This document shows positions 4,438 to 10,681 of a stretch of DNA of 46,363 nt, piece after piece. Source of the DNA: Planctomycetota bacterium (GTDB taxonomy: Bacteria; Planctomycetota; MHYJ01; WSZJ01). Numbering within the stretch: position 1 is the stretch's first letter; every line of letters begins with the position of its first letter. The translations under genes were made by a program, and so were the position numbers. The notes under the pieces are model-generated. The model saw only the letters and a program-made list of their open reading frames with translations, was not told the DNA's origin and searched no databases. The DNA lies in contig JBBTCT010000041.1 of NCBI GenBank assembly GCA_038060895.1, positions 1 to 46,363 on the forward strand, written 5' to 3'.

Positions 4438-6662
4438 GCGGTCGTCGCCCCGGGTGGCGCCTCCGCCACGGTCGGCGCCTTCGAGTCGCCCTGGACGCGC
4501 GCGCAGTTGCGCCCGGCGGCCTTGGCGGCATAGAGCGCGGTGTCCGCCGCCTTCACGAGCAGCTCCGGCGTGTCGCCGTGCTCGGGGAACGCCGACACTC
4601 CGATCGACACCGTCACCTGCCCGAATTCCAGCCCCTTGATCGGCAGCACGATCCGGCGCGTCGCCTCCAGGATGCGCTCCGCCGCGATCCGCGCCTGGTT
4701 CAGGCCCGTCTCCGCGAGCAGCACCGCAAATTCCTCCCCGCCGTACCGCACCATGACGTCGCTTCCGCGCGCGGTGGCCTGAAGCGATTTCGCGAACTCG
4801 CGCAGGACGACGTCGCCGGCGTCGTGGCCGTACGTGTCGTTGAATTTCTTGAAGTGGTCTATGTCGATCATGAGAACGCCGAGCAGGTGGTGGAAGCGCT
4901 TGGCCTGGGCGACCATGGCGCGCGCGGTCGTGTCGAAGTGGCGGCGGTTGTACAGGCTCGTGAGCGGGTCGCGGACCGCGGCCTGGGAAACGAGAGCGAG
5001 GTAGCGCTTCGCCTGCACCGACGCGGAAGCGGAACGGATGAGCTCGAGCGCAAGTTCCACGCGGGCCGGATCCGGGTTCGGGGACTGGAACTCGAGGTGG
5101 ATCGTTCCTTCGACCTTGCCGCCGACCGAAATCGGCGCGCACAGGAAGCCGCCGGGGGAAATTCGCCCGAGGCACGGCTGCACGCGCTCGTCGCAGGTCC
5201 GCGGGTCCACCGGTTCGCCCGTCTCCAGCACCGGGCAGATCCCGGGATTCGCAATCACGGGCGCTTCGAACCCTGGCTCCGGCCGCAGCCCCGTCGTCCG
5301 CTCCGCCCGCAGCCGGTCGCTCCCGGGCCTCTTCAGGAAAATGTTGATGCTCTGCGGCTGCAGGACCGCCTCCAGGTGGTAGTTCAGCCGCCGCAGGACC
5401 TCATCGTCGTCCTTGGCCTCCTGCATCTCCGCGGCCAGCTTGTTCTTCACCGTCAGCGCAAAATCGCGCGCCCGCATCGTGTCTTCCCACTCGCGCTGCT
5501 TCGACATGTCGCGGTGAACCGCGACGGCGCCGATCACGTTTTTGTCCTGGTCGAAGAGCGGCGCCGCGGTGATCGAGAGGGGAATGAAGAGGTTCTCGCG
5601 CTGGGCGCAGAGGTCGTCGGAAGAGACTTTCGTCTTCTTCGATATCGCCTGCGCCACGGGCAGGTTCGCGGGATCGACGTCATGCCCGTCCGGCTTGACG
5701 AGTTTCGGCTCGGAGCCCAGGAGCAATTCCCCGGCGGCGTTGACCATCAGCGTCTCGCCCTCCGCCCCCGCAAGCACAACGCTTTCGTCGAGGCTGTCGA
5801 GAATCGTGAACAGCTTTCCGCGCTCGCGCCGTTCCACGCCGGCCAGCGCTTCGACCTCCTTCGCCATCCGGTCGACCTCGAGGGCCCTGGCTTCCAGACG
5901 TGCGCGGTCAACCACTCCGCGCCGGCGCGCGACGACGTAGCCGCCGAGCAGAAGGGCCGAAAGGACGACGATGGACGCGACGAGGGCCTGCGACTTGGAA
6001 AGCTCCTGCGAGTCCTCGCGAACGTGCAGAGTCCAGGTGAGGCCCGGCAACGAGAGTTTGACCCTCAGCTTCGCCTCGCCCGCGGGCTCCCGGGACACGG
6101 GCTTCCGTCCCCGCGAATCCGTGAGCACGAACGGTGAGTCTTCGCCCGCGGAAGCGTTGACGGCGTCTCCGACGAGCCGGTCGAGCCGGAAGACGCCCGC
6201 GACCGCGCCGCCGTTCGCCGGCGCCCAGATCACGACGACGGTTTCCTGGTTCGGGGCCGAGGCAGGATCGTCGACCGCCGTGGTGCCCGCGAGCGCCGCG
6301 CGGCACGCGGGCGTCGTGGAGACCAGACGCGTCGCACCCGAGTCAAATCCGCGGACGTCCGCCGAAAACTCCGCCTTCCCGTCCGCGCCGAACCGCGCCA
6401 CCCCGGCCAGCGCAGGGAAGACCTGCCCGATGGATTCCGCCCGCTCCCGCTCGGCGTCCGGCCCGCCTTTGACCGGGCTCCCCAGGTGCCGCACCGCTTC
6501 CACATGGCGCAGGATCGACCCCGTCACCAGCCCGCGCACCCGCTCCGCCTCCGTCGAACGCCGCGAGGCCGCCAGCTCCTCGAAATACCACACCATCGCC
6601 GCGTCGCCCGCGGCGAGCACGAGCGCGAAGATCAGAGAAGCGCCGAGGATCGACTTCTTCAG
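4434..6662 (-). CDS. Membrane sensor diguanylate cyclase (extracytoplasmic sensor-TM-PAS-GAF-GGDEF)
   Basis: DPLTSLYNRR, DIDHFKKFNDTYGHDAGD, RGSD I-site 5 aa before GGEEF, ADTALYAAK. The track starts at 6620, but the frame extends to a CTG at 6662 that completes the first TM helix. Confidence 0.9.
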   Translation of the reverse strand: MKKSILGASLIFALVLAAGDAAMVWYFEELAASRRSTEAERVRGLVTGSILRHVEAVRHLGSPVKGGPDAERERAESIGQVFPALAGVARFGADGKAEFSADVRGFDSGATRLVSTTPACRAALAGTTAVDDPASAPNQETVVVIWAPANGGAVAGVFRLDRLVGDAVNASAGEDSPFVLTDSRGRKPVSREPAGEAKLRVKLSLPGLTWTLHVREDSQELSKSQALVASIVVLSALLLGGYVVARRRGVVDRARLEARALEVDRMAKEVEALAGVERRERGKLFTILDSLDESVVLAGAEGETLMVNAAGELLLGSEPKLVKPDGHDVDPANLPVAQAISKKTKVSSDDLCAQRENLFIPLSITAAPLFDQDKNVIGAVAVHRDMSKQREWEDTMRARDFALTVKNKLAAEMQEAKDDDEVLRRLNYHLEAVLQPQSINIFLKRPGSDRLRAERTTGLRPEPGFEAPVIANPGICPVLETGEPVDPRTCDERVQPCLGRISPGGFLCAPISVGGKVEGTIHLEFQSPNPDPARVELALELIRSASASVQAKRYLALVSQAAVRDPLTSLYNRRHFDTTARAMVAQAKRFHHLLGVLMIDIDHFKKFNDTYGHDAGDVVLREFAKSLQATARGSDVMVRYGGEEFAVLLAETGLNQARIAAERILEATRRIVLPIKGLEFGQVTVSIGVSAFPEHGDTPELLVKAADTALYAAKAAGRNCARVQGDSKAPTVAEAPPGATTA

Positions 6663-7291
6663 AGCAACCCCTTTCGATTCACCGCGTCGTCACGATACCT
6701 CTCTTCCTTCCATGGGTCGCCACGCATGTGATACCCGCGTTCCTCCCAGAATCCCGCTTTGTCCTCCGCCAGAAACTCGACCCCCGTCGCCCACTTCGAG
6801 CTCTTCCAGAGGTACAGGTGCGGAATCAGGTCCCGCAGCGGCCCGCCGTGCGGCACCGGCAGAGGCGCGCCTTCGTGCTCGTACGTGAACATCGTGTCGG
6901 GGCGCGCGAAGTCGGCCATCGGGACGTTCGTCGAGTACCCGGGTTCGCCGAGAATGAGCGCAAAGCGCGCCTCAGGCCTCGGCTTGCAGCGCTTCAGGAT
7001 CTCCGTGTGCAGCACTCCGCGAAACGTCTGGTCGAGTCGTGACCAGGTCGTGACGCAGTGGAGGTCGCACTTCATGGAGACCGACGGAAGCGCGACGAAC
7101 TGATCCCACGAATAATCGAGCGGGTTTTCGACCAGGCCGCCGACGGTGAAGAAGAACTGTTTTTTCGTGATGAAGGGCGTCTGTCCGGCGGTGAGGACGG
7201 GCCAGCCGCTGACGAGTTTCTGTCCGGGCGGGACGCGATCGGACTTGCGCAGCGTGTCGGGGTGGATGATGGCGGCTGCGGCGGCGGGCAT
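6659..7291 (-). CDS. Sulfite oxidase-like molybdopterin-binding oxidoreductase (YuiH/MsrP-like)
   Basis: RVPPGQ, WPVL, DLHCVTTWS (Mo-ligating Cys), HGGPLR, YLWKSSKW, GFWEERGYHMRGDPW; ATG at 7291. Confidence 0.9.
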   Translation of the reverse strand: MPAAAAAIIHPDTLRKSDRVPPGQKLVSGWPVLTAGQTPFITKKQFFFTVGGLVENPLDYSWDQFVALPSVSMKCDLHCVTTWSRLDQTFRGVLHTEILKRCKPRPEARFALILGEPGYSTNVPMADFARPDTMFTYEHEGAPLPVPHGGPLRDLIPHLYLWKSSKWATGVEFLAEDKAGFWEERGYHMRGDPWKEERYRDDAVNRKGLL

Positions 7292-7410
7292 GACTTGGAG
7301 TGTAGGCCGATGGGAAGGGAGCGCGAAGAAGGAGTTACCGGGTCCTCCGCAGCGGGACAAGCCGATAATCCCGTGCTAGCATTATTGGAGATTCCAACAG
7401 GAGATCCGGC

Positions 7411-7629
7411 ATGCCCACGATCATCTACGGCAAGGAAGGCTGACCCTATACCAACGCCGCCCGTGAGGATTTCGGCAAAAAAGGAAAGGTCAGCTATTTC
7501 GACGTGAAGAAGGACGCAGCACAGCTCGACGCCATGCTCAAGGCTTCCGCCGGAGCGCGCCGCGTGCCCGTCATTGTCGAGGACGGCGGCAAGGTGACGG
7601 TCGGCTACAACGGGTCCTGAGGGGTCTGA
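7411..7629 (+). CDS. Glutaredoxin-like selenoprotein with two predicted Sec (UPYT and C-terminal UGV*), not in ORF track
   Basis: RBS AGGAG, then ATG 7411. Translation MPTIIYGKEG-U-PYTNAAREDFGKKGKVSYFDVKKDAAQLDAMLKASAGARRVPVIVEDGGKVTVGYNGS-U-GV*, with TGA at 7441 and 7618 and stop at 7627. Grx hallmarks are continuous across the first TGA. Confidence 0.88.
7456..7476 (+). promoter_or_regulatory. Candidate SECIS hairpin 1
   Basis: GCCG-c-CC[GTGA]GG-attt-CGGC starting 12 nt after UGA 7441-7443. Confidence 0.6.
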
Positions 7630-7635
7630 AGCGCC

Positions 7636-7652
7636 GCCGGCCGTGAGCCGGC
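7636..7652 (+). promoter_or_regulatory. Candidate SECIS hairpin 2
   Basis: GCCGGC[CGTGA]GCCGGC starting 15 nt after UGA 7618-7620; same CCGTGAG core as hairpin 1. Confidence 0.6.
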
Positions 7653-7672
7653 TCCACGAAAGCGCCCCGACG

Positions 7673-7702
7673 AAAAAGGGCCGGCGGTTTCCCGCCGGCC
7701 CT
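7673..7702 (-). terminator. Intrinsic terminator of nrdJ (possibly bidirectional)
   Basis: aaaaAGGGCCGGCGG-tttc-CCGCCGGCCCT: perfect 11-bp stem with U-tract on the minus strand. Confidence 0.85.
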
Positions 7703-7732
7703 CGACTTTCGACCTTTGACCTTCGACGGCTG

Positions 7733-10513
7733 TTAGCTGCACCCGCTCGTCCCGCCGCAGTTATCGCACCGGTAGCAGGCCGCGTAGCGCGTCATGATCG
7801 TGCCGCACTCAGGGCAGGGCGGCGCGTCAGCCTGGTTGATGAAGACCTGCTTCTCCCGCCTTTCGATCGAGCTAATCCGCTCCACCGAAAGAACCTGCAC
7901 CGGCGCCGGCTTCGGCGCGGCAACCGCCGCCGCCGCGGCTTTCTCGATGATCGACGTGTCCGAATCCTTGCCGATCGCGGCCTGGAACTCGGGCTTGAGG
8001 AACTTCAGCGAGAGCCAGCGGAAGATGTAGTCCGTGATCGACTTCGCAAACCGGATCGCCGGGTTGCTCGTGATCCCTTGTGGTTCATAGCGGCTGTGAC
8101 TGAACTTCGTCACCAGCACTTCGAGCGGCACCTGGTACTGAAGCGCGATCGAGATCGACGTCGCGAACGAGTCCATCAGGCCGGAGATCGTCGATCCTTC
8201 CTTCGCCATCGTGACGAAGATCTCGCCCGGGCTGCCGTCCTCGAACAGGCCGACCGTGACGTACCCGTCGTGCCCCGCGATCGAGAACTTGTGCGTGATC
8301 GCCTGGCGCTCGTCCTGCAGGCGGCGGCGAAGCGGCTTGGCGGGCTCGGCGGCCGCTTTCTTCTTTTCCGCGTGCTCGGACTTGGACGTCCCGAGAGGCT
8401 GGATGCGCTTTGAGTTCTCGCGATACACCGCTACGGCCTTGATCCCGAGCTTCCACGACTCCATGTAGGCCGTCTGGATCTCGTCGATCGTCGCGTGTTC
8501 GGGGAGGTTCACCGTCTTGGAGATGGCGCCCGACACGAACGGCTGGACGGCGGCCATCATGCGGATGTGGCCCATGTAGTGAATGAAGCGGCTTCCGTTG
8601 GCGGCCTTGAACGCGCAGTCGAAAACGGACAGGTGTTCGGGGCGAAGGTGCGGCGCGCCCTCGATCGTCTCCTTCTCGTCGATGAACTTGACGATCTCGG
8701 AGATCTGGGCCCGGGCGTAACCGAGTCTCTCCAGCGCTTCCGGCACCGTCTGGTTCACGATCTTGAGCATTCCGCCGCCGACCAGCTTCTTGTACTTCAC
8801 GAGCGCGAGATCCGGCTCCACGCCGGTCGTGTCGCAGTCCATCATGAAGCCGATCGTGCCGGTGGGCGCGATGACGGTGACCTGGGCGTTCCGGTAACCG
8901 TGCTCACGACCGAGCTCGAGCGCCTGGTTCCAGGCGCGCCGGGCCGCTTCAAGCAGCGCGCTCGGCACGTTTTTCGGGTCGATGTTGGCGATATTGGCGC
9001 GGTGCTTCTCAATCACGCGCAGCATCGGCTGGCGGTTCTTCATGTACTCCTCGAACGGACCGAGCTTCTCGGCGATGACGGCGGACATCTTGTAGGCGAC
9101 GCCGCACATCAGGGCCGTGATGCCCGCCGCGTAGTCGCGGCCTTCCTGGCTGTCGTACGCGAGGCCGCGCGCCATCAGGACGGCGCCGAGGTTCGCGAAG
9201 CCCAGGCCGAGCGTCCGGAACTTGTGCGACATCGTCGCAATCCGGTCCGTCGGGTACTTCGACCCGCCGACGATGATCTCCTTCGCCAGCGTCATCATCG
9301 AGCACGCATGGCTGAGCGCCTTGATGTCGAGCTCGCCGTCCGGCTGGCGGTACTTCATCAGATTCAGGCTCGACAGGTTGCACGCCGTGTTGTCGAGGAA
9401 CATGTACTCGGAGCACGGGTTCGAAGCGTGGATCTTGTCCGTGTTCGAGCAGGTGTGCCAGTCGTTGATCGTCGTGTCGAACTGCATCCCGGGGTCGCCG
9501 CAGAACCAGGTCTCCTCGGCGATGGCGCGGAACACGTCCCGCGCGCGGTACTTCGCGATCACCCGGCCGTCCACCCTGGCCTTGGTTCCCCACTCCTTGT
9601 CGTCCAGCACCGCGCGCATGAACTCATCGGACACGCGCACGGAGTTGTTCGAGTTCTGGAAGAACACCGAGCTGTACGCCTCGCCGTTCACGCTTCCGTC
9701 ATACCCCGCGTCGATCAGCGCGTGCGCCTTTCGCTCTTCGGAGCCCTTGCAGTGGATGAATTCGAGGATGTCGGGGTGATCGACGTCGAGGATCACCATC
9801 TTGGCCGCGCGGCGGGTCTTCCCGCCTGACTTGATGACGTTGGCGAAGGCGTCGAAGCCGCGCATGAACGAAACCGGGCCGCTGGGCTTGCCGCCGCTGG
9901 AAAGGCGCTCCTTGGCGCTGCGAAGCGGCGACAGGTTGGTGCCGGTGCCGGAGCCGTACTTGAAGAGCATCCCCTCGGTGCGCGCGAGCGTGAGGATCGA
10001 GTCCATTGAGTCTTCGATCTGGTTGATGAAGCACGCCGAGCACTGGGGGTGCTTCTCGATGCCGACGTTGAACCAGACCGGGCTGTTGAACGCGGCTTTC
10101 TGGTTGACGAGGAGGTGCGAAAGTTCCGCGTAGAACGCCTGCGCGTCCTCCGGGCTCGCGAAGTATCCGCCCAGCTCACCCCAGTTGGTGATCGTCCGCG
10201 CGACGCGCTCGACGAGTTGCTTGACCGAGTGTTCCCGGTCCGGGCCGTCTACGGCGCCGCGGAAGTACTTGGAGACGACGACGCTGGTCGCAAGCGCGGA
10301 CCAGAACTTGGGGACCTCGACGTTCTTCTGCTCGAAGATGACGTCGCCCTTGTCGTTGGTGATCGAGGCTGTCCGGAGATCCCATTCGAGTTCGTCGAAG
10401 GGGTGGACCTCCGTTTTTGAGAAGAGGCGTTCAATGTGGAGACCGCCGTAGCGTTTGGTTTGGGGCTGTGTCGAGGCAGGCACTTGTGCCGTAGCCTGGC
10501 TGGCCTGAATCAT
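7733..10513 (-). CDS. nrdJ: Adenosylcobalamin-dependent (class II) ribonucleotide reductase
   Basis: AFNSPVWFN, QCSACF, GGKTRRAAKM, SNPCSEY, ACNL, IAPTGT, C-terminal domain with CPECG..CDNCG; ATG 10513 preceded by GGAGGT. Confidence 0.96.
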   Translation of the reverse strand: MIQASQATAQVPASTQPQTKRYGGLHIERLFSKTEVHPFDELEWDLRTASITNDKGDVIFEQKNVEVPKFWSALATSVVVSKYFRGAVDGPDREHSVKQLVERVARTITNWGELGGYFASPEDAQAFYAELSHLLVNQKAAFNSPVWFNVGIEKHPQCSACFINQIEDSMDSILTLARTEGMLFKYGSGTGTNLSPLRSAKERLSSGGKPSGPVSFMRGFDAFANVIKSGGKTRRAAKMVILDVDHPDILEFIHCKGSEERKAHALIDAGYDGSVNGEAYSSVFFQNSNNSVRVSDEFMRAVLDDKEWGTKARVDGRVIAKYRARDVFRAIAEETWFCGDPGMQFDTTINDWHTCSNTDKIHASNPCSEYMFLDNTACNLSSLNLMKYRQPDGELDIKALSHACSMMTLAKEIIVGGSKYPTDRIATMSHKFRTLGLGFANLGAVLMARGLAYDSQEGRDYAAGITALMCGVAYKMSAVIAEKLGPFEEYMKNRQPMLRVIEKHRANIANIDPKNVPSALLEAARRAWNQALELGREHGYRNAQVTVIAPTGTIGFMMDCDTTGVEPDLALVKYKKLVGGGMLKIVNQTVPEALERLGYARAQISEIVKFIDEKETIEGAPHLRPEHLSVFDCAFKAANGSRFIHYMGHIRMMAAVQPFVSGAISKTVNLPEHATIDEIQTAYMESWKLGIKAVAVYRENSKRIQPLGTSKSEHAEKKKAAAEPAKPLRRRLQDERQAITHKFSIAGHDGYVTVGLFEDGSPGEIFVTMAKEGSTISGLMDSFATSISIALQYQVPLEVLVTKFSHSRYEPQGITSNPAIRFAKSITDYIFRWLSLKFLKPEFQAAIGKDSDTSIIEKAAAAAVAAPKPAPVQVLSVERISSIERREKQVFINQADAPPCPECGTIMTRYAACYRCDNCGGTSGCS

Positions 10514-10681
10514 CTTCTGGACCTCCGAGCGTTCGATTTTATAAAGCATGAAATGTAAAGGAGCCGTAAGGCGACCGGGCAGTCATTGCGTGAAAAGGGC
10601 TGAGGAGACCGCCGGCCCGGCGTGGGCCGGACGAAGTGGAACACCCCTAAGCGCGACCCGTAGACGAAACCCCCCGTTGCT

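Follow-up and report, generated by a model that had tools for sequence, protein, structure and literature searches.

A predicted two-selenocysteine redoxin of UXX-star family 1 in a planctomycete genome, with a putative SECIS element beyond the stop codon

Introduction

Positions 7411 to 7629 of a planctomycete contig raise a simple question: can a 72-codon frame that contains two in-frame UGA codons be a gene and, if it is, what do these codons encode and what might the product do? The DNA analysed, referred to below as the window, is a stretch of 46,363 nucleotides (contig JBBTCT010000041.1 of assembly GCA_038060895.1). A preliminary description, made from the letters alone, had proposed a small protein of glutaredoxin fold, probably a redoxin with two selenocysteine (Sec) residues. 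This proposal for a predicted protein is now supported by the Sec machinery of the genome, by the alternation of TGA with Cys and by conservation downstream of the first TGA, and the gene product is very probably a two-Sec redoxin as predicted. The family to which it belongs, UXX-star family 1, is already curated and in print, and the gene is an ordinary member of this family, not a discovery.

The gene and its coding frame

The gene comprises the following features.

7374..7382, plus strand: extended -10-like promoter motif TG-n-TAGCAT, inferred from comparison within the genus
7400..7404, plus strand: ribosome-binding site AGGAG, read directly from the sequence, 6 bases 5' of the ATG at 7411
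7411..7629, plus strand: coding sequence of the UXX-star gene, 72 codons and stop, from its translation and its NF041114 score
7441..7443, plus strand: UGA codon 11, a predicted Sec codon that occupies the attacking position in U-P-Y-T
7618..7620, plus strand: UGA codon 70, predicted to be read as Sec, third residue from the C-terminus (U-G-V-stop)
7627..7629, plus strand: true stop codon TGA, which varies between TGA, TAG and TAA in relatives

Read from 7411, the frame gives MPTIIYGKEG-U-PYT at its start, RRVPVIV further on and VGYNGS-U-GV at its end, where the codons after the UGA of codon 70 are GGG (Gly), GTC (Val) and a third TGA. The ribosome-binding site with its ATG, the UGA in YGKEG-U-PYT at the attacking position of glutaredoxins, and the continuation of the fold through RRVPVIV and VGY to a second UGA followed by Gly-Val-stop had all been pointed out in the preliminary description, and all are present. 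The gene had also been said to escape the open reading frame track, and it is indeed absent from the table-11 listing of the window.

A GGAG motif also precedes the UXX-star gene in same-genus relatives. A motif resembling TG-n-TAnnAT is found at the equivalent site, about 30 nt upstream, in five of the eight same-genus loci compared, and the copy at 7374..7382 may act as a promoter. A scan of 7200-7800 for consensus promoters and terminators gave no match.

Contigs from two independent DNA studies have no base differences at this locus: one (X3) spans 7000-7552 and 7618-8200, the other (X4) spans 7392-7579, and the bases are identical in both. RNA libraries of two studies provide one contig for each half of the gene (X12, 7601-7746; X20, 7417-7569), one of the two being chimeric and DNA carry-over being possible. 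One RNA-library contig, which derives from a relative, has three listed differences within the gene, all of them at third codon positions. The RNA-library contigs are a weak hint that the gene is expressed and that selection acts in this frame. The frame is a real gene.

Family membership

For scoring against NCBIfam and Pfam models, U was replaced by C in the 72-residue product. The NCBIfam equivalog NF041114, 'UXX-star selenoprotein family 1', matches with 107.1 bits against a cut-off of 72 (E = 4e-31), and residues 4-72 align with profile positions 2-70 of 70. Its parent, NF041212 ('Uxx-star family glutaredoxin-like (seleno)protein'), gives 81.1 bits against a cut-off of 66, and the Pfam Glutaredoxin model 33 bits against 22.9. 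A 'Uxx-star' family of NCBI had been named in the preliminary description, and this name was correct. A six-frame search of the genome with NF041114 found a single locus, of 92.4 bits, with two TGA codons inside.

In addition to its full-length score above the cut-off, the product has the U-x-x-stop end and the UxxT motif (U11-P-Y-T14) of the family, together with two predicted Sec residues, and this copy differs from UXX-star family 1 in no respect that was found. At the first site, about a quarter of the sampled relatives carry Cys, and this copy has Sec. The NCBIfam models for UXX-star families 2 and 3, Grx3, NrdH and mycoredoxin all score the product far below their cut-offs. For NrdH redoxin (TIGR02194), the score is 15.2 bits against 85.75; for glutaredoxin 3 (TIGR02181), it is 28.5 bits against 90, and the CPYC dithiol is absent, residue 14 being Thr.

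For the other UXX-star families, the source cited is Haft & Tolstoy 2025 (mSystems). Family 1 is listed in the table in section 7 of a 2026 review as 'Distant Grx-like protein 1', with the motif UxxT and two Sec (PMC13188914), so that the suspicion that the family might already be named was well founded. The review traces the family to the GOS selenoproteome paper (PMC13188914), which has general Grx-like rows (PMC2398784). Across the full text of the literature searched, the name 'UXX-star' was found only in the review (PMC13188914).

Selenocysteine machinery and the genetic code

The host assembly consists of 47 contigs and is 86.5% complete. The preliminary description had suggested that the Sec machinery be sought in it, and tRNA-Sec, selA, selB and selD are all present. 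The tRNA-Sec scores 71.7 bits against 47 with Rfam, and ARAGORN reports it as tRNA-SeC with anticodon tca. The matches to selA (541 bits), selB (344 bits, over two stretches of one frame) and selD (364 bits) are above their cut-offs. The selD match (G000 contig C2:48628-49548, locus L019) has one in-frame TGA inside it, and the SelD of this genome is therefore probably a selenoprotein itself.

TGA is not generally reassigned in this DNA. It is otherwise an ordinary stop codon, and ends 23 of the 40 open frames of at least 350 codons in the window.

Conservation of the two UGA codons

When 61 related genomes were searched in all six frames with NF041114, 25 loci scored above the cut-off. The 24 relatives are 49-96% identical across the whole length, including the part that follows the first TGA. 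At site 1 (codon 11), TGA is present in 19 of the 25 relatives and TGC or TGT (Cys) in the other six; within the genus of the window, the numbers are three TGA and five Cys. At site 2 (codon 70), all 25 have TGA. The two residues after site 2 are GV in 23 relatives, AI in one and SI in one, and the stop codon that follows U-x-x is TGA in 13, TAG in nine and TAA in three. The sequence past the true stop is not conserved among the relatives. Only TGA or Cys occurs at the two sites in close relatives.

A scan of one genome per species confirmed 117 relatives, of which 80 loci were kept; it finds Cys-11 forms only, because its pattern had Cys at site 1. These loci come from Planctomycetia (the closest, 72-78% identical), Acidobacteriota, Myxococcota/Deltaproteobacteria/Thermodesulfobacteriota and Bacillota records. 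All except one (79 of 80) end in U-x-x-stop with TGA at site 2, and the deviating locus (L133) was left out of later counts.

In protein collections, most records of the UXX-star family end at the residue that directly precedes site 2. Both sites are Cys in one close relative (P0015). Three public calls (P0013, P0019 and P0020) have Trp at both TGA sites, and the same is true of nine cluster representatives. This is the result of pipelines that use a TGA=Trp code, which hides the selenoprotein. Site 2 was classed in the best-scoring 150 cluster representatives (50% identity) from 1137 hits at E <= 0.001. Among these 150, the record ends at profile position 69 in 50, reads W in nine, has Cys in 15 and another residue in three, and 73 are not classable; 15 Cys forms thus stand against 59 that end at TGA or read it as W. 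Since there are Cys forms at site 1 and at site 2, Cys/Sec pairs exist at both sites.

The preliminary description had expected homologues with Cys or TGA at both sites, and conservation past the first TGA. The first expectation agrees with the 19 TGA and six Cys forms at site 1, with TGA throughout the 25 relatives at site 2 and with the distant Cys forms there; the second agrees with the whole-length identity of the 24 relatives. Judged from these codons, conservation is far stricter for the predicted C-terminal Sec than for the predicted N-terminal one.

Candidate SECIS elements

A hairpin lies downstream of each UGA codon.

7456..7476, plus strand: SECIS-like hairpin 1, GGA loop at 7467-7469, within the coding sequence
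7636..7652, plus strand: candidate SECIS hairpin 2, stems 7636-7641 / 7647-7652, CGUGA loop at 7642-7646

Folded singly, the two hairpins do not exceed shuffled sequences in stability (z about -0.2), and for this reason the case for SECIS elements rests on comparison and not on energy. No Rfam family matches either hairpin in a search of the window at gathering thresholds.

The loop of hairpin 2 begins 24 nt past the U of the second UGA, and the hairpin lies wholly in the 3' UTR. Across the 25 relatives, 84% of cells in the alignment are paired, compared with 32-46% when the partners are slid, and both sides vary in six of the seven pairs. The covariation score of 0.606, compared with 0.13-0.17, was reached by none of 500 shuffles. 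A covariance model (R1) built from the 25 relatives finds the hairpin in the window at 7618-7668 with 41.6 bits; its second-best hit there, at 10601-10647 (12.3 bits, E = 0.38), was taken as chance. When 80 other loci (827 kb, both strands) were searched with the same model, there were 39 hits at E <= 0.01, all of which start exactly at the second UGA, with none elsewhere; five of the 80 loci are Planctomycetota records that are probably not independent of the model. In the alignment fitted by the model, pairing reaches 92.5%, compared with 36-49%.

A plain hairpin scan gave, for 103 of 104 loci, a stem of at least five pairs after the second UGA. The distance from the U of this UGA to the start of the loop is 18-26 nt in 96 of the 104 loci, with a peak at 21, compared with 82 of 520 loop starts in this range for shuffled tails. 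At least one of the first two loop bases is G in 101 of the 103 hairpins. The stop TGA at 7627-7629 is 9 nt nearer hairpin 2, which gives a loop offset of 15; this is outside the range of 18-26, and the codon would terminate for this reason. On this comparative proof, which goes beyond the family label, hairpin 2 is identified as a predicted 3'-UTR SECIS element.

The loop of hairpin 1 begins 26 nt past the U of the first UGA. Its pairing is 74.9%, compared with 23-50% when slid, and its covariation, which 13-21 of 500 shuffles match, is modest because the hairpin is located in conserved coding sequence. Pairing is seen in 109 of 133 cells for the TGA-bearing sequences and in 22 of 42 for the Cys-bearing ones. 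Of the 19 TGA forms, 17 have CGT, with a synonymous third base T, as the Arg codon in the stem; none of the six Cys forms does. In the window's own copy, five of the seven positions pair. By this comparison, TGA forms retain the putative element while it decays in Cys forms, and the support for hairpin 1 as a SECIS element is weaker than that for hairpin 2.

These results bear on the possibility that the locus does not encode a selenoprotein at all, but is a glutaredoxin gene decayed by nonsense mutations, a gene read with a code in which TGA is a sense codon, or a product of sequencing error. The W found at TGA in P0013, P0019 and P0020 could be cited in its favour, and shows only that another code was applied. 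Decay would have to be reconciled with TGA codons kept at precisely these two positions across phyla, alternating with Cys only and followed by hairpins at a fixed distance, in a genome with the full Sec machinery. A code with TGA as sense disagrees with the 23 of 40 long frames in the window that TGA stops, and an error disagrees with the identical bases of independent assemblies. This explanation is extremely improbable. The best explanation, held with high confidence, is a 72-residue glutaredoxin-fold protein of UXX-star family 1 in which both UGA codons are predicted to be Sec directed by SECIS elements.

Predicted structure and proposed redox chemistry

An AlphaFold2 model made on the 25-sequence alignment has a pLDDT of 87.3 and a pTM of 0.73. 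Its elements follow in the order strand 3-7, helix 12-24, strand 27-31, helix 36-45 and strands 54-56 and 62-64, and the resulting beta-alpha-beta-alpha-beta-beta topology is that of the glutaredoxin/NrdH fold. In Foldseek searches of the PDB, the model matches the E. coli Grx3-glutathione mixed disulfide (TMq 0.73), BC3987 (TMq 0.77) and NrdH proteins (TMq 0.71-0.74). All E-values are above 1e-3, as expected because the query has only 72 residues.

Like this protein, E. coli Grx3 (CPYC) has its active-site residue at position 11, with Pro-Tyr after it, and forms its cis-Pro loop from Val-Pro at 52-53; the fold is also shared. We take residue 11 and the Val52-Pro53 loop to occupy the positions of Cys11 and Val52-Pro53 in Grx3. 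The UXX-star protein differs in having Sec for the first Cys, Thr for the second and an added C-terminal arm, Gly-Ser-Sec-Gly-Val, and Grx3 models score it at 21-28 bits against cut-offs of 90-129. NrdH and the thioredoxin-like protein BC3987 of B. cereus have in common with it a length of about 75 residues and a minimal fold. The NrdH motifs CVQC and WSGFRP are absent from its sequence. A further likeness to NrdH exists in this genus, where the UXX-star gene adjoins a ribonucleotide reductase gene, although the reductase here is of class II and not class Ib.

With Thr at residue 14, there is no local resolving thiol. In the model, the cis-Pro loop is formed by Val52-Pro53. DSSP assigns strand or bridge to residues 51-52 and 70-71, and the remaining strands are already part of the four-stranded sheet. 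Residues 51-52 are the sole unpartnered strand residues left, and the C-terminal arm would therefore pair just before the cis-Pro. In glutaredoxin complexes, the cysteine of glutathione sits at the residues that precede the cis-Pro. Such pairing would thus place Sec70 beside Sec11. The preliminary description had suggested, from the Thr at the resolving position, that the C-terminal Sec may resolve the N-terminal one through a diselenide, and a Sec11-Sec70 diselenide would be consistent with the model.

The following mechanism may be proposed. SelA, SelB, SelC and SelD of the genome would read both UGA codons as Sec, each directed by its own hairpin, hairpin 1 within the coding sequence and hairpin 2 beyond the stop. 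The third TGA, six bases past Sec70, would be too near hairpin 2 and would terminate translation. Residue 11, Sec here and Cys in many relatives, would correspond to the attacking Cys of the glutaredoxin CPYC motif, and the Gly-rich C-terminal arm would carry Sec70 into the groove beside the cis-Pro loop, where it could make and break an Se-Se bond with residue 11 (Se-S in Cys11 forms). The protein would then be a small carrier of electrons, with a selenolate arm that swings. For this chemistry between residues 11 and 70, and for the role as an electron carrier, the chances are roughly even.

Parts of this arrangement are seen in other selenoproteins. Mammalian thioredoxin reductase has a Gly-Cys-Sec-Gly C-terminal arm, in which Sec pairs with the adjacent Cys of a large flavoenzyme, and the flexible arm exchanges electrons with a buried redox centre. 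This enzyme has reportedly been expressed in E. coli with a SECIS element placed just past the stop codon. The UXX-star protein resembles it in having a predicted Sec on a Gly-rich C-terminal arm and a candidate SECIS in the 3' UTR after the stop; it differs in that Sec would pair with residue 11 of a protein of only 72 residues, and in that bacteria have this arrangement naturally. SelL, with its UxxU diselenide, has two Sec residues three positions apart in one motif. The likeness here lies in two Sec residues, a possible diselenide and a thioredoxin-type fold, whereas the two Sec of the UXX-star protein are 59 residues apart.

Gene neighbourhood

Downstream of the UXX-star gene, nrdJ, which encodes a B12-dependent class II ribonucleotide reductase, lies at 7733-10549 on the minus strand (1430 bits). 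The two genes are tail to tail and 104 nt apart, with one structure in between.

7677..7702, no strand assigned: strong GC hairpin, possibly a two-way terminator, between the convergent UXX-star gene and nrdJ

This hairpin has a folding energy of -28.1 kcal/mol (z = -3.4), which is matched by none of 200 shuffles, and was missed by the terminator scan because it has no T run. It is followed, up to 7730, by a short run of direct repeats of the CGAC/TTT type. The C-terminus of NrdJ (7733-7820, minus strand) is rich in Cys: it contains two CxxC pairs and ends in a Gly-rich stretch that holds one more Cys; it presumably resembles the zinc-finger tail by which class II reductases receive electrons. 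The gene nrdJ adjoins the UXX-star gene in six of eight same-genus loci. It is absent within 1.5 kb in the 17 relatives from outside the genus, and over 97 loci it lies within 6 kb in only four, all of Planctomycetota.

Upstream, a divergent gene on the minus strand (6659-7360) encodes a PF00174 molybdopterin-binding oxidoreductase domain (109 bits). The protein has 233 codons at most and little beyond the domain, and its true start is probably downstream of the listed TTG. The PF00174 gene is beside the UXX-star gene in seven of eight same-genus loci (here and in six of the seven others). Beyond it are genes for a GGDEF protein and TruD. In one other planctomycete family, 13 loci have a true moaA (388.5 bits; its cut-off is 284) upstream on the same strand, with an end 23-58 nt (133 nt in one locus) from the UXX-star gene. 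In loci L051-L059, L061, L062 and L065 of that family, the UXX-star start codon follows the moaA stop by a few bases, and the ribosome-binding site of the UXX-star gene overlaps the end of moaA. The spacing suggests that moaA and the UXX-star gene may be co-translated in that family.

Other lineages have other neighbours. In Acidobacteriota, 41 of 56 loci have a tandem ThyX-like gene (PF02511, 125 bits) at a distance of up to 6 kb, on one side or the other and on either strand; this gene of 535 residues (e.g., L073:6243-7850) stays near the UXX-star gene through at least six gene orders. The ThyX-like gene of the host genome is on a different contig from the UXX-star gene. The ndk gene is found within 800 nt downstream in five loci, directly adjacent in four; four of the five are labelled Deltaproteobacteria/Thermodesulfobacteriota and one is unlabelled, and an HhH-GPD gene lies upstream in three. 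In the Bacillota loci L080 and L117, the UXX-star gene is flanked by gpsA and spoIVA. Pfam scans of the neighbours in Myxococcota and other planctomycete families gave unrelated genes or no family, with nothing recurrent, and clustering of neighbours over the 97 loci found no partner common to all lineages. In the literature searched for ThyX and for NrdJ, no title or abstract opening listed bears on UXX-star family 1. The related genomes behind these counts are not independent of one another, and the phylum labels were taken from record titles. The lineage-specific neighbours point to deoxynucleotide synthesis or to the molybdenum cofactor, and are leads to a partner rather than evidence for one.

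Both leads correspond to a different view of what the protein does. Two selenolates, or a selenolate and a thiolate, could be ligands of a soft metal or of a cofactor metal such as molybdenum, which would make the protein a binder of metals or metalloids; the Planctomycetota neighbours tied to the molybdenum cofactor (moaA in 13 loci, PF00174 in the same genus) would suit such a role. The fold and the U/C-P-Y-T motif are nevertheless those of a thiol-disulfide oxidoreductase, a metal-binding domain is absent, and the molybdenum-linked neighbours are confined to one phylum, with none in 74 loci that are from other phyla or unlabelled. Metal binding is therefore regarded as unlikely. Somewhat less likely again is an NrdH-like reductant dedicated to deoxynucleotide synthesis, which would donate electrons to NrdJ or to a ThyX-like enzyme. 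This would account for the tail-to-tail nrdJ here and in six of eight same-genus loci, the nearby ThyX-like gene in 41 of 56 Acidobacteriota loci and the nucleoside diphosphate kinase gene in five loci, and the best structural matches include NrdH and BC3987. The nrdJ link may, however, be plain synteny, because it is found in one genus only and the genes are convergent. The host's own ThyX-like gene is on another contig, the NrdH model gives only 15.2 bits against 85.75, the neighbours are unrelated in Bacillota (GpsA, SpoIVA) and other lineages, and counts from related genomes are not independent. A more specific form of the same idea, in which family 1 proteins would be selenium-dependent donors for deoxynucleotide synthesis (to class II ribonucleotide reductase and/or a ThyX-like enzyme) through a Sec11-Sec70 diselenide arm, is slightly more doubtful still.

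Significance

Ordinary gene calling misses UXX-star family 1 genes or truncates them. The usual statement, as given in the review, is that bacterial SECIS elements are in the coding sequence (PMC13188914), and a 3'-UTR SECIS at a fixed distance, as predicted here, would be an exception to this placement. If the reading as a deoxynucleotide donor with a diselenide arm were true, the near-obligatory C-terminal Sec would reflect chemistry beyond that of Cys. The candidate 3'-UTR SECIS, the stricter retention of the predicted C-terminal Sec and the lineage-specific neighbours go beyond the family label, and could guide a functional experiment.
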